From assembly GCA_964490135.1 (NCBI GenBank), contig CAZBBI010000001.1:1-25558 (forward strand): a stretch of 25,558 nucleotides of DNA, given 5' to 3'. The stretch comes from an uncultured Candidatus Peribacteria bacterium. GTDB lineage: Bacteria > Patescibacteriota > Gracilibacteria > UBA4473. The notes under the pieces are model-generated. The model worked only from the letters and a program-made list of their open reading frames with translations. It did no database searches and had not been told where the DNA came from. Shown one piece after another: positions 7,956 to 21,916 of this stretch; position 1 is the first letter of the stretch; the number at the start of each line of letters is the position of its first letter. Both the position numbers and the translations under genes were made by a program.

Positions 7956-7991
7956 AAGATTGTTTTTTGTTTGTTATTCCTGTATGGTTAT

Positions 7992-8010
7992 GCGTACCTA
8001 AATACGTACA
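7992..8010 (+). promoter_or_regulatory. Putative YefM operator: two GTAC palindromic cores 12 bp apart
   Basis: GCGTACC (GTAC at 7994-7997) and ACGTACA (GTAC at 8006-8009), just upstream of the antitoxin ATG; same spacing as the TGTACA-core repeats of the E. coli yefM-yoeB operator. Confidence 0.6.
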
Positions 8011-8014
8011 AATA

Positions 8015-8266
8015 ATGACAATAGTTTCTGCAACCGATTTTCGAAAAAATATGTCGGAATATATTCAGCAAACGAGGGATCGTCGACAACCAATAACTAT
8101 TACAACACAAAAACAGGAAGCAATGGTTATGCTACCCCTAAAACAATGGGAAAGTTTTCAAGAGACTCTTTATTTGATGTCGTCGCCAGCGAATAAATCT
8201 AGGTTAGATACTGCTATTTCTGATATAAGAGCAGGGCGATTTAGTACTCATAATTTAGATATATAA
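8015..8266 (+). CDS. yefM: Phd/YefM family antitoxin
   Basis: MTIVSATDFRKNM..., ESFQETLYLMSSPANKSRL matches the YefM C-terminal motif; adjacent to a YoeB toxin; start moved to ATG 8015. Confidence 0.9.
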   Translation: MTIVSATDFRKNMSEYIQQTRDRRQPITITTQKQEAMVMLPLKQWESFQETLYLMSSPANKSRLDTAISDIRAGRFSTHNLDI

Positions 8267-8267
8267 A

Positions 8268-8525
8268 ATGATTATAGCTTTTCATAGTAGAGCTTGGGAA
8301 GACTATTGTCATTGGCAAAAGTATGATAAAAAAATCCTCAAAAGAATTGGACAGCTTTTGAAAGACATAAAAAGAAGTCCATTTTCGGGAAAAGGAAAAC
8401 CAGAACTGTTAAAGTATAATTATAGTGGATTTTATTCTAGAAGAATTACAGAAGAGCATCGATTAATATATACAATTAAAGAGGATACTATTATTATTGC
8501 ACAATGTCGTTTTCATTATGAATAA
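8268..8525 (+). CDS. yoeB: Txe/YoeB family mRNA interferase toxin
   Basis: AWEDYCHWQ, PFSGKGKPELLK, YSRRITEEHRLIY, CRFHY. Confidence 0.93.
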   Translation: MIIAFHSRAWEDYCHWQKYDKKILKRIGQLLKDIKRSPFSGKGKPELLKYNYSGFYSRRITEEHRLIYTIKEDTIIIAQCRFHYE

Positions 8526-10346: not shown

Positions 10347-11036
10347 ATGATGTCATATTCGCATAACTTCAAAAATACCAAGATTAGAGAGAAATTTAAA
10401 TTGGGTAAAAAAATATCTTCGATTTCAAAAAAAATTATGTATGGAACACTTATAGGAGTTCTTTTTGTAAATGTAACGTTTGCCTATAATATCTCTACTC
10501 CAAGAGTGGCAGTCGGGTCTTTTTTGACAAAATCATTATGGGATTTGTTAATTGATGATTTGTGGGGTCTTATGATGGAAATGGATACAAATAATGCGAA
10601 TATCTCAACAAATACTGCGAATATTGCAACAAATACTGCAAATATAGGTGCCAATGTACCAACTGGAGCGGTTATGCATTTTAATTTATCAAGTTGCCCA
10701 TCTGGTTGGTCATCTTTGGTGGCGGCAGAAGGGCGATACATGGTAGGGTTACCTTCCGGTGGTAGTTTGGGAGCCTCTGTGGGAAACGCTTTAACGAATT
10801 TAGAAAATAGAGAAGTAGGGCGACATACTCACGTGGTGAATGATCCAGGTCATGCTCATGGAATCGAGCAAATAGTTGGTACCGGTGGTGTTAATTGGGG
10901 TATATCTAGGAATCCAAGTGGAACAACTTTTAATGATTCCTCAACGGAATCTACTGGAATTGTTCTTAGTAATACTGGGGATATAAATGGAACAAATGCC
11001 CCCTATCTACAACTTTTAGTGTGTGAGAAAGACTAA
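10347..11036 (+). CDS. Predicted secreted protein with heptad stalk repeats and a phage tail-collar/tail-fibre-like C-terminal domain
   Basis: Signal peptide ending VTFA; TNxANIx repeats; VPTGAVMHFNLSSCPSGW, GRY, HTH/HAH and NAPYLQLLVCEK are typical of tail-collar/fibre-tip domains. Confidence 0.65.
   Translation: MMSYSHNFKNTKIREKFKLGKKISSISKKIMYGTLIGVLFVNVTFAYNISTPRVAVGSFLTKSLWDLLIDDLWGLMMEMDTNNANISTNTANIATNTANIGANVPTGAVMHFNLSSCPSGWSSLVAAEGRYMVGLPSGGSLGASVGNALTNLENREVGRHTHVVNDPGHAHGIEQIVGTGGVNWGISRNPSGTTFNDSSTESTGIVLSNTGDINGTNAPYLQLLVCEKD
10587..10649 (+). repeat. 3 x 21-bp tandem coding repeat (TNNANIS TNTANIA TNTANIG)
   Basis: acaaataatgcgaatatctca / acaaatactgcgaatattgca / acaaatactgcaaatataggt. 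Confidence 0.85.
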
Positions 11037-11081
11037 AATATACTAGGAAATTTTACATAAAAAGAATATCATAAGCTTGTT

Positions 11082-11915
11082 ATGAATGAATTTGATATAC
11101 AGTATCAGGGAATTTTGAAGGATATTCTTGAAAATGGATATGAGGAGGTGAATGAGAGGACTGGTCATGTATGTAAGAGTCTTCCTGGTATGACGATGAA
11201 GTTTGATCTTGCTAAAGGGTTTCCACTTTTAACTTTGCGGAAAATTCCTTTGAAGGTTTTTATAGCCGAACAAATCTGGTTTCTTATGGGTGCTAGAAAC
11301 TTAGAATGGCTTCAGGATTTTACTAAAATTTGGGACGATTTTGCAGAAAGTAATAATTGTGTAGAAGCTGCTTACGGATATCGTTGGCGGAAGCATTTTG
11401 GACGAGATCAAGTTGATGGACTGGTTAAATTACTCAGTGAAGATCCGTCTTCTAGACATGGAGTGATTCTCATGTGGGATCCCGCTGATGATGGACTAGC
11501 TGGCGGAACAAAGAAAAAGAATGTCCCTTGTCCATACACTTTTACTGTACAAATTATAGGAGGGAAGCTTTGTCTCCACCTTGTCATAAGATCGAATGAT
11601 ATGATGCTCGGAAATCCTCACGATACAGGCGGGTTTGCACTTTTGGCACATTTCTTAGCAGAAAAATTAAAAATTCCTGTTGGTTTTTTAACGGTTTCTA
11701 TTTCTAATGCTCATATTTATGATATTCATTTCGAAAATGCTAAAGAAATTGTAAGTCGGAAATTAGAACATAAACCAATAAAATTTGAATGTCCGAAGGG
11801 GGCGTTCGATCGAGCAGAAAAAGGGGATAAAGATTTAGTTTTAGAATGTTTTGATCAACTTATGTCTAAGTATGATCCACAAGAAAGTTTGGGTAGAATG
11901 AAGATAGTATTGTAG
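11082..11915 (+). CDS. thyA: Thymidylate synthase family protein (atypical active site, Asp at the E. coli Asn177 position)
   Basis: ERTG, FPLLTLRK, EQIWF, YGYRWR, PC (Cys150), RSND, NAHIY motifs; GNPHD instead of GLPFN. Confidence 0.85.
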   Translation: MNEFDIQYQGILKDILENGYEEVNERTGHVCKSLPGMTMKFDLAKGFPLLTLRKIPLKVFIAEQIWFLMGARNLEWLQDFTKIWDDFAESNNCVEAAYGYRWRKHFGRDQVDGLVKLLSEDPSSRHGVILMWDPADDGLAGGTKKKNVPCPYTFTVQIIGGKLCLHLVIRSNDMMLGNPHDTGGFALLAHFLAEKLKIPVGFLTVSISNAHIYDIHFENAKEIVSRKLEHKPIKFECPKGAFDRAEKGDKDLVLECFDQLMSKYDPQESLGRMKIVL

Positions 11916-12043
11916 TCTTGTATTGATTTTTATAAGATTTGATCCAGAGTGCTGATCTAAAAGAACTAAACTCTATTTAGCCGAACCTCTTTTTTTAAGA
12001 TAATTCTTAATTTTATCTTAATATTGTTATATAATTTTTTTTA

Positions 12044-12072
12044 TTGACAGCTTAAGATTTTTACGATAAGAT
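12044..12072 (+). promoter_or_regulatory. Putative sigma70 promoter
   Basis: TTGACA-N17-TAAGAT, 8 nt before the ATG at 12081 (near-leaderless transcript). Confidence 0.55.
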
Positions 12073-12080
12073 TCTCAAAG

Positions 12081-12773
12081 ATGAGCATAAATAAAAAAAT
12101 AATAAAAATATCAATTTTGGTTATTTTATTTTTTTTGATTACCACTTCAATGTGGGCAATTAATAGTATTCAAGAAGGATTTAGAGGCTCTGTCATAAAA
12201 CAAGAAATTGATGTCCATGGAACCTGCAAAAATGTTCAAGCATCTGGGACAAAAGAATATTTTATTCCTACTAATCAAAGTATAGAATGGACAAGTTTCT
12301 TAGCGCATCCACCTGCTGATATAATTATCTCACCATGTTATACTTATATATGGAAAGTTGGAGGCTATGGAGCATGTTCTAAATCTTGTGGAGGAGGTGT
12401 CCAATACCGATCAGTTTGGTGTCAGAGAAGTGATAGTACAACTGTTGCCGATAGTTTTTGTGGAGGTGGAAAGCCCGCAACAAGTAGAAGTTGTAATACA
12501 GCAGCTTGTTGTTCTAATAGGAATGTAAGTCTTGGAACTAATGGTGGGACCTGTTCTACTGCCTGCAGCAACATAGGTCAAAATTGTTCTTCCACTAGAC
12601 ATGAAAACTGGGGACAGCAAGGATCTCATTGGGGACCTTGGGATCCTGGGTGTGGATATGCGGTGCGAGGTTGGAGTGGTGACTGTGGAAGTATGCCAGG
12701 AAAAACTAGTTGTGGAAGCAATATGGACAGAGTAACTGTAGGATCGGCTACTTGTTATTGTTCTTGCAGATAA
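12081..12773 (+). CDS. Predicted secreted Cys-rich protein with a thrombospondin type-1 repeat
   Basis: Signal peptide ending SMWA; WKVGGYGACSKSCGGGVQYRSVWC...C...P...C...C is an ADAMTS-like TSP1 pattern; further Cys-rich C-terminal domain. Confidence 0.8.
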   Translation: MSINKKIIKISILVILFFLITTSMWAINSIQEGFRGSVIKQEIDVHGTCKNVQASGTKEYFIPTNQSIEWTSFLAHPPADIIISPCYTYIWKVGGYGACSKSCGGGVQYRSVWCQRSDSTTVADSFCGGGKPATSRSCNTAACCSNRNVSLGTNGGTCSTACSNIGQNCSSTRHENWGQQGSHWGPWDPGCGYAVRGWSGDCGSMPGKTSCGSNMDRVTVGSATCYCSCR

Positions 12774-21283: not shown

Positions 21284-21916
21284 ATGAAATATCATTTAAA
21301 CTGGTTTTTTGAAGCATTATTTCCCCCCAAATGTTTGGTTTGTAAAAAAGAAGGAGATTATTTGTGTCAAACTCATTATAAATTTGAAAAAGCACCTTTA
21401 AACGCTGCTACGTTTCAGTTTTTAGATGATGTTTTTGCTAGTACAAAATATTTTTCAATTCCAACAGAGACAATAATTACTAATTTTAAATATAAAGGAA
21501 TTAAAGATTTATCAGATATTATGGCAACAGAAATTTTAAAAAATATTCCTGAAAAGTTTTTAAAAAATACAGTTTTAATTCCAATTCCACTGCACTGGAC
21601 AAGAAAATTTTGGCGAGGTTTTAATCAGGCTGAAATGTTAGTCAATTCCTTAAAACAAAAAAATCCAAAATTTAAAATATTAAAAAACCTCAAAAGGAAA
21701 AAAAGAACTGCACAACAAGCTAAGTTAGGAAAAGAAAGACGGGTTAAGAATATGAAATCAGCGTTTTTGTGGACTGGGGAAACCATTCCCTCAAATGTTA
21801 TCCTAGTTGATGATGTGGTGGCAAGTGGTACAACACTTGAATCGGCAGCAAAAACATTGAAACAAGTTGGAGTAGATAAAGTTTATGGACTTGTTTTTGC
21901 TCGTGGAGGAAAGTGA
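21284..21916 (+). CDS. comF: ComF family competence protein (zinc ribbon plus PRTase domain)
   Basis: FPPKCLVC..LC, PIPLHWTR..RGFNQA, ILVDDVVASGTT. Confidence 0.92.
   Translation: MKYHLNWFFEALFPPKCLVCKKEGDYLCQTHYKFEKAPLNAATFQFLDDVFASTKYFSIPTETIITNFKYKGIKDLSDIMATEILKNIPEKFLKNTVLIPIPLHWTRKFWRGFNQAEMLVNSLKQKNPKFKILKNLKRKKRTAQQAKLGKERRVKNMKSAFLWTGETIPSNVILVDDVVASGTTLESAAKTLKQVGVDKVYGLVFARGGK

Follow-up and report, generated by a model that had tools for sequence, protein, structure and literature searches.

The 25,558-nucleotide contig CAZBBI010000001.1 of an uncultured Candidatus Peribacteria bacterium (the window, analyzed at its full length of 25.6 kb) encodes a homolog of the thymidylate synthase ThyA that is probably a deoxycytidine monophosphate (dCMP) C5-methyltransferase of the EC 2.1.1.54 type, acting in a reordered thymidylate route of bacteria of the candidate phyla radiation (CPR). 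Confidence in the predicted substrate, dCMP, taken by itself, is higher than in this statement as a whole. To our knowledge, methylation of deoxyuridine monophosphate (dUMP) to thymidine monophosphate (dTMP), carried out by ThyA or ThyX, counts as the universal cellular route to thymidylate de novo. If the window enzyme and its relatives methylate dCMP instead, a number of lineages within a very large radiation of bacteria would methylate first and deaminate second, an order so far proposed only for phages with 5-methylcytosine (5mC) in their DNA. The reading is carried by the fold of the protein, a residue signature that is strictly conserved, a placement outside canonical ThyA and the linkage of the gene in relatives; from these we infer a substrate, a product, an order of steps and the roles of two partners, a divergent deaminase and a DCD-like protein.

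Structurally, the window protein is a complete member of the ThyA family. Its open reading frame (ORF) contains zero internal stops under translation table 11 or table 25, and the product matches PF00303 (Thymidylat_synt, E 9.9e-54, residues 7 to 232) and phrog_160 (E 1.9e-67). The top Foldseek matches of an AlphaFold2 (AF2) model (predicted local distance difference test, pLDDT, 89; predicted template modeling score, pTM, 0.90) are ThyA crystal structures, which superpose over the full length with template modeling (TM) scores of 0.73 to 0.82. Ungapped HMMER alignments to solved ThyA structures set the motif RSNDMMLGNPHD against RSaDvfLGvPfN and bring Asp181 opposite Asn177. This register and the AF2 superposition give no reason to doubt that the two residues are structurally equivalent, and so bear out the sequence-only reading of the window, which had placed Asp181 at the Asn177 position. 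The same reading had described a catalytic Cys150 followed by Pro (PCP in place of PCH) and SSRH in place of DSRR, and both are found at the codons given in Table 1. Its further statement that the other folate and phosphate residues are retained agrees with the alignment: R21, E58, W80, Y94, R126, C146, R166, S167, D169, H207 and Y209 (E. coli numbering) are all kept, and C150, R170, S171, D173, R26, E63, Y98, H211 and Y213 of the window protein align with the catalytic, phosphate and folate sites of ThyA. In addition to N177D, H147P and R127H, the substitutions relative to ThyA comprise W83F, Q165I, D205N, L143N and A/P144V. In ThyA two arginines extend across the dimer interface to the phosphate, and Arg127 is the second of them.

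Sequence conservation in relatives reveals that this signature is invariant at close range. Positions 177, 147 and 127 are Asp, Pro and His in 120 of the 120 listed close homologs (70 to 100% identity; the protein search gave more than 100 such homologs), and the residue pattern is not a product of chance. A HMMER search that was exhaustive over 1.84 billion cluster representatives found proteins with Asp at position 177 (Asp-type) for almost all of the 70 best-scoring relatives, while every Asn177 (Asn-type) protein in the list also carries His147; positions 177 and 147 thus co-vary. A comparison of 127 Asp-type and 17 Asn-type sequences showed the two groups to overlap least at positions 177, 143, 147 and 144, followed by 83 and others. 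Residues 143 to 147 read N-V-P-C-P in the Asp-type, as opposed to L-[PA]-P-C-H in the Asn-type. Position 147 is Pro in 105 of the 127 Asp-type sequences and His in all 17 Asn-type sequences, position 83 is Phe in 121/127 and Trp in 15/17, respectively, and position 127 is Q, H or R in the Asp-type. At every one of the top discriminating positions, the window protein is in the Asp-type state (D181, P151, F87, N147 and V148). Positions 177 and 147 are likewise the top two positions that discriminate ThyA homologs on cytosine-modified phage contigs (PMC8670742). A possible dCMP methylase had been suggested from the sequence, and the prediction made here is in line with it, as cytosine-modifying ThyA homologs are marked, according to published work, by Asp177 together with a residue other than His at 147 (PMC8670742).

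An unrooted neighbor-joining (NJ) tree with capped distances and 100 bootstraps splits canonical His147/Asn177 ThyA, along with two nested exceptions, from all other Asp-type sequences (98/100 bootstraps). The window protein lies outside the canonical clade, among Asp-type homologs that include the enzyme of Xanthomonas phage Xp12; alignment and phylogeny, which the sequence-only reading had named among its checks, are in agreement with it. Within the Asp-type sequences, the Gracilibacteria and a Uhrbacteria-like group each form a sub-clade (100/100 and 100/100). The two exceptions, P0246 and P0264, are Pro147/Asp177 sequences nested within the canonical clade, which suggests that the Asp/Pro state arose more than once. 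Natural fusions of Asp-type ThyA also occur: P0135 (433 residues) carries a dCMP-deaminase domain at its N-terminus, and, judged by eye, P0205 (424 residues) carries a MazG-like pyrophosphohydrolase domain, P0148 (432 residues) an HNH/AP2-like domain and P0121 (466 residues) a 188-residue N-terminal region to which no domain was assigned.

Comparison with known systems points to the Xp12 enzyme as the nearest precedent. BLASTP of the window protein gives 162 bits for Xp12, as compared with 123 for E. coli ThyA and 42 for T4 gp42, and its best phage matches are 'thymidylate synthases' of Bradleyvirinae siphophages, Xp12 among them (34 to 39% identity). Like the window protein, the Xp12 enzyme (EC 2.1.1.54; QNN97214.1, annotated 'thymidylate synthase') has the ThyA fold with Asp at Asn177. 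The Xp12 group and the window protein further share the N-V-P-C-P stretch with Pro at His147, Phe at Trp83, a WDPxxDG insertion before the catalytic Cys (as part of a WDPxxDG...KNVPCP motif) and the terminal Asp of RSxDxxxGxPxD; D181 and P151 are the same in the Xp12, DoCa10, Mallos and ZQG1 phage enzymes. Unlike the window protein, which has His at position 127, Xp12 has Arg there, and whereas the CPR gene is chromosomal and housekeeping-like, the Xp12 gene is phage-borne. Both Xp12 and the CPR relatives link the gene to dihydrofolate reductase (DHFR), a deaminase of the cytidine deaminase (CDA) fold and a nucleoside triphosphate (NTP) pyrophosphatase. However, the CPR partner deaminase has no detectable similarity to that of Xp12, and the CPR pyrophosphatase belongs to the DCD/dUTPase family, whereas that of Xp12 is of a HAD/MazG-like type. 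The resemblance to canonical ThyA (EC 2.1.1.45; E. coli and Elizabethkingia 6AUJ) extends to fold and length (TM about 0.8), the catalytic Cys, the phosphate and folate residues listed above and a hydrophobic C-terminal tail, and the Asp-type relatives share its coupling to DHFR; identity to the E. coli enzyme is 30% in BLASTP.

Published work ties Asp at this position to cytosine substrates. T4 CH, MilA and BcmA, which use cytosine, all conserve this Asp, while uracil-using enzymes carry Asn (PMC5175136); the sequence-only reading had noted Asp in phage dCMP hydroxymethylases, and D179 of T4 gp42 indeed aligns with D181. The statement that Asn177Asp in E. coli or Asn229Asp in L. casei shifts ThyA toward dCMP also accords with the literature, since earlier work summarized in PMC8670742 found that the N177D/N229D mutations switch the enzyme to dCMP methylation. 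In a recent preprint, 5-methyldeoxycytidine (5mdC) was made in E. coli by the ThyA homolog of Xp12 and by five of seven metagenomic Asp-type homologs, and a neighboring 'dCMP deaminase' selectively turned 5mdCTP into dTTP (bioRxiv 10.1101/2024.12.05.627091). Its authors propose a phage route from dCMP to 5mdCMP, 5mdCTP and dTTP that bypasses dUMP methylation, with one pathway feeding both 5mC and T in Xp12 (bioRxiv 10.1101/2024.12.05.627091). The phage route with the 5mC-selective deaminase mSCD-B5 resembles the CPR clusters in that an Asp-type ThyA stands beside a PF00383 deaminase. Descriptions of it are confined to phages with 5mC DNA, whereas the CPR module is chromosomal in several lineages and has a different family of deaminase as well as of pyrophosphatase.

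Genomic neighborhood analysis covered 68 related genome loci and loci selected by way of the DCD-like gene; 148 loci were fetched (designated by L numbers below). DHFR is encoded within 10 kb of the ThyA homolog at 47 of the 68 loci, in most cases directly downstream; in the Uhrbacteria-like group, overlap of the DHFR start with the ThyA stop codon is common. Such tight coupling argues that dihydrofolate (DHF) is a product, and hence for reductive methylation rather than hydroxymethylation of the gp42 type. A PF00383 deaminase is found at 39/68 loci and a DCD/dUTPase-family protein at 38/68, while a canonical dUTPase lies directly upstream of the ThyA homolog at about 14/68. Gene order varies: the Uhrbacteria-like locus L065 reads tmk, dut / thyA(Asp), folA, a deaminase fused to a nucleoside-deoxyribosyltransferase-like domain, nudix and, further on, the DCD-like gene; L045 reads tmk, deaminase / thyA(Asp), DCD-like, folA; and on the Gracilibacteria chromosome L008, folA, the DCD-like gene and the deaminase follow just downstream of thyA(Asp) with overlapping starts. 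Between them, L065 and L045 complete the cluster with tmk, dut and a nudix gene. The methylate-then-deaminate route that had been offered as one possibility from the sequence would fit this conserved linkage to DHFR and a dedicated deaminase in relatives. On the complete 'Altimarinota' chromosome L004, a 91-residue ORF without a family match lies between the ThyA homolog and DHFR (L004:10997-11272); its sister chromosome L007 lacks this ORF.

The DCD-like protein (about 216 residues) is annotated as a dCTP (deoxycytidine triphosphate) deaminase and barely passes the corresponding model (TIGR02274, 93.5 against a cutoff of 92.8 bits), but it carries Pro at the catalytic Glu138 of Dcd (LMIPILN vs IVLEFYN). 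Pro occupies this position in all 38 copies near Asp-type ThyA and in all 80 recovered independently from metagenomes, and a role as dCTP deaminase was rejected on these 118/118 copies. The dUTPase Asp90 and the sugar-gating Tyr93 are kept (GIIDTFYCG vs GLIDSDYQG). The protein is thus most likely a deoxynucleoside triphosphate (dNTP) pyrophosphatase and not a deaminase, with dCTP, dUTP and 5-methyl-dCTP as candidate substrates. A canonical dUTPase is also encoded in the Uhrbacteria-like clusters, so that the DCD-like protein is less likely to be a second plain dUTPase. A ThyA lies nearby at 34 of the loci chosen through the DCD-like gene, and at 33 of them it is Asp-type.

The second partner is a divergent CDA-fold protein annotated as 'dCMP deaminase', with 23.5 bits to the dCMP deaminase structure 2HVV and only 123 homolog clusters in the protein search; at L065 the fused domain resembles a nucleoside 2-deoxyribosyltransferase. 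It is a candidate 5-methyl-dC nucleotide deaminase. The deaminases detected among the 148 fetched loci are of this divergent type at 81 loci and canonical at three (L123, L119 and L120), of which L119 and L120 are short contigs without a ThyA. In the exceptional cluster L123, the deaminase is a canonical ComEB-type enzyme (138 bits to 2HVV) and the ThyA is Asn177/His147. Here the ThyA-deaminase pair looks as if it had been replaced as a unit. ThyA type and deaminase type would then change together, as a switch in reaction order would require; with one independent event among phylogenetically related loci, this is suggestive only.

The reaction proposed for the window enzyme, by analogy with phage Xp12, is dCMP + 5,10-methylene-tetrahydrofolate (THF) to 5-methyl-dCMP + DHF. 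If the mechanism follows that of ThyA and the N177D/N229D mutants, Cys150 would attack C6, and Asp181 would hydrogen-bond and protonate cytosine N3/N4 where Asn177 would read uracil N3-H and O4; transfer of the methylene group would be followed by its reduction with a hydride that THF supplies, leaving DHF. In the wider route, the DCD-like pyrophosphatase without the deaminase Glu probably supplies dCMP from dCTP or sanitizes the pool, and the ThyA homolog would perform the one-carbon step by methylating dCMP. The divergent deaminase-fold enzyme may then deaminate a 5-methyl-dC nucleotide, either the monophosphate or the triphosphate, to its dT counterpart, with FolA (DHFR) recycling DHF to THF and Tmk presumably acting downstream.

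Table 1. Coordinates of the ThyA homolog and its key residues in the window, and of partner genes at related loci (L numbers, each with its own coordinates).
Feature	Location	Strand	Basis or remark
Coding sequence, 277-residue ThyA-family (PF00303) protein, Asp177 type, predicted dCMP C5-methyltransferase	11082..11915	+	ORF, Pfam, AF2/Foldseek, residues
Phe87 codon TTT, ThyA Trp83 position, folate and C-terminus docking region	11340..11342	+	sequence
His126 codon CAT, ThyA Arg127 position, SSRH for DSRR	11457..11459	+	sequence
Catalytic Cys150 and Pro151 codons, TGT CCA	11529..11534	+	opposite Cys146-His147; part of N-V-P-C-P
Motif RSNDMMLGNPHD, R170-D181	11589..11624	+	Arg170, Ser171, Asp173 correspond to ThyA R166, S167, D169
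Asp181 codon GAT, base-specificity Asn177 position	11622-11624	+	HMMER register with ThyA structures
DCD-like protein, about 216 residues	L004:11791-12441; L008:12527-13174; L065:14733-15662; also L012, L045		linked to Asp-type ThyA
Divergent CDA-fold 'dCMP deaminase'	L008:13174-13644; L065:11474-12397; L045:9394-9933		81 loci in all
Exceptional cluster: DCD-like(Pro), deaminase, canonical ThyA (PPCH ... GVPYN), FolA, Tmk	L123:7995-11318

Several observations weigh against dCMP methylation in a reordered route. Its substrate is predicted from residues and from homologs at about 35% identity, and identity to the Xp12 group (35.5%) is barely above that to canonical ThyA (33.5%). Two of the seven Asp-type homologs in the preprint gave no 5mdC (bioRxiv 10.1101/2024.12.05.627091), and the NJ tree gives no resolved deeper order among the Asp-type groups, the monophyly of the CPR and Xp12 sequences included. 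No DHFR, deaminase or DCD-like gene is linked to the ThyA homolog within the 25.6 kb of the window. The CPR deaminase was considered as a member of the Xp12/mSCD deaminase family and rejected, having no significant BLASTP similarity to it. On two complete 1.3 Mb chromosomes with ThyA, DHFR and the DCD-like gene, a homolog search found no divergent deaminase, a weak negative as the same search missed a known copy (L011). Finally, the gene set of dut, tmk, folA, the dCMP-deaminase-like gene and the DCD-like gene is also suited to the conventional dUMP pathway, which needs the same set, so that context alone cannot fix the order of steps.

This last point leads to a competing explanation, an ordinary thymidylate synthase that methylates dUMP despite Asp181, its site re-tuned by the pocket changes P151, I169 and F87, in a route from dCTP/dCMP to dUMP and dTMP. 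Public sources name the protein accordingly, the catalytic, phosphate and folate residues are kept except at positions 83, 127, 147, 165 and 177, and the thymidylate synthase model TIGR03284 (NCBIfam) is passed with 136.6 against a cutoff of 108.35. However, the six other NCBIfam ThyA equivalog models give 53 to 162 bits against cutoffs of 325 to 576, far below them, and the protein lies outside the canonical clade with the bootstrap support given above. The context genes are those of the classical dTMP pathway, and the canonical ThyA in the same cluster position at L123 suggests that the two types are functionally interchangeable. Yet the partner DCD-like protein lacks the deaminase Glu, the partner deaminase is of a divergent family, and the deaminase is canonical in the one cluster whose ThyA is Asn-type. 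Furthermore, every natural Asp-type homolog named in the cited papers, T4 gp42, MilA, BcmA, Xp12 and five metagenomic enzymes, acts on cytosine (PMC8670742, PMC5175136, bioRxiv 10.1101/2024.12.05.627091), and N177D alone shifts ThyA toward dCMP (PMC8670742). An ordinary thymidylate synthase is on this evidence unlikely.

Compatible with dCMP methylation is an extension of it, in which 5-methyl-dCMP would also be phosphorylated and enter DNA, so that much or all cytosine would be 5mC as in Xp12, while the deaminase diverts part of the pool to dTTP. The functional gene set is that of Xp12 (NTP pyrophosphatase, Asp-type ThyA, CDA-fold deaminase and DHFR), where the pathway serves 5mC and T alike (bioRxiv 10.1101/2024.12.05.627091). 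A Tmk/dNMP-kinase gene lies within the cluster, and the weak negative for the deaminase on the two complete chromosomes leans the same way. On the other side, literature searches found no report of such DNA, full substitution would require efficient removal of dCTP, and carriers range from 34% to about 50 to 58% G+C, a width that argues against a uniform strong pressure of 5mC-to-T deamination. We regard this extension as quite unlikely for these CPR bacteria. The reading that they (Gracilibacteria, Uhrbacteria and relatives) both make dT via 5-methyl-dC and incorporate 5-methyl-dCTP from the pool, with much or all genomic cytosine as 5mC, is a speculation with a low chance of being right.

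A dCMP hydroxymethylase of the T4 gp42 type (EC 2.1.2.8), making 5-hydroxymethyl-dCMP, would share with the window protein the Asp at the specificity position, a residue other than His after the catalytic Cys and, as predicted here, dCMP as substrate. Identity to gp42 is only 22%, at 42 bits compared with 162 bits to Xp12. gp42 is shorter than ThyA and lacks the ThyA C-terminal segment, whereas the window protein has a C-terminal region of ThyA length and aligns over full ThyA structures. gp42 hydrates the methylene intermediate rather than reducing it, which releases THF and requires no DHFR (PMC8670742); the relatives of the window protein, in contrast, are tightly coupled to DHFR. This coupling and the low similarity to gp42 led us to reject the hydroxymethylase, which is extremely improbable.

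The dCMP methylase signature favored here extends well beyond the window. The nearest genome matches are metagenome-assembled genomes (MAGs) labelled Gracilibacteria, 'Altimarinota' or 'Peribacteria' (70 to 85% identity), complete chromosomes of 0.96 to 1.33 Mb among them, and at 49 to 56% identity the homolog occurs in MAGs of Uhrbacteria, Kaiserbacteria, Parcubacteria and other Patescibacteria. The suspicion that the variant is widespread in CPR is thereby borne out. The window itself has the 34% G+C that marks the lower end of the carriers, the upper end being judged from the names of Uhrbacteria MAGs. Public records name these genes thymidylate synthase (including PMC12455944). In the searchable literature we found no work that connects dCMP methylation, 5mdCMP or Asp-type ThyA to CPR, Gracilibacteria or Uhrbacteria, nor a report that ties the dCMP-methylase class or the methylate-then-deaminate logic to any cellular genome. 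Both the enzyme class and this logic are known or proposed for phages; their occurrence in CPR, and in cells at all, would be the new part.

If dCMP is the substrate, the 'thymidylate synthase' annotations and the metabolic reconstructions built on them would be wrong on the substrate and on the implied handling of dUMP, dUTP and uracil. The clusters would then represent a cellular source of 5mC-nucleotide enzymes (the methylase, possibly a 5-methyl-dC-selective deaminase and a DCD-derived pyrophosphatase), a kind of enzyme relevant to methylation-sequencing tools. It also becomes possible to test directly whether pool-derived 5mC DNA exists in any cell, and a positive answer would extend the pre-replicative base substitution of phage Xp12 to cells for the first time. 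More broadly, the finding bears on evolution, in either direction, between phage DNA-modification modules and cellular nucleotide metabolism.

The gene in the window is chromosomal and not part of a prophage, as had been stated from the sequence. An M24 peptidase gene and a hypothetical gene flank it upstream, a TSP1-domain gene and rplJ-rplL lie on the other side, and in complete chromosomes the homolog is found near rpoC, rpsL, rpsG and recA. A scan of the viral contigs of IMG/VR with patterns from the window protein, which reach close relatives only, returned zero relatives and so gives no sign of a phage-borne gene. A promoter and terminator scan of positions 10900-12150 found nothing near the gene above shuffled expectation. 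The hypothetical gene directly upstream (10347-11036, +) encodes a 229-residue protein with a hydrophobic N-terminal stretch and NTANI(A/S/G)T repeats in tandem, without a Pfam match. Downstream, 12081-12773 (+) encodes a Cys-rich predicted secreted protein with a TSP1_ADAMTS domain (PF19030, E 4.5e-12), which is unusual in bacteria. Elsewhere in the window, a Phd/YefM antitoxin and YoeB toxin pair (7967-8525, +) lies between hisS and a YgjP-like metallopeptidase gene. Nearly all genes of the window stop at TAA or TAG. In-frame TGA is rare and is absent from the ThyA homolog, and only about one table-11 ORF ends at TGA (21284-21916); read as a sense codon, that TGA would extend the ORF to 22072. 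Such stop-codon usage is consistent with the UGA=Gly code of Gracilibacteria.

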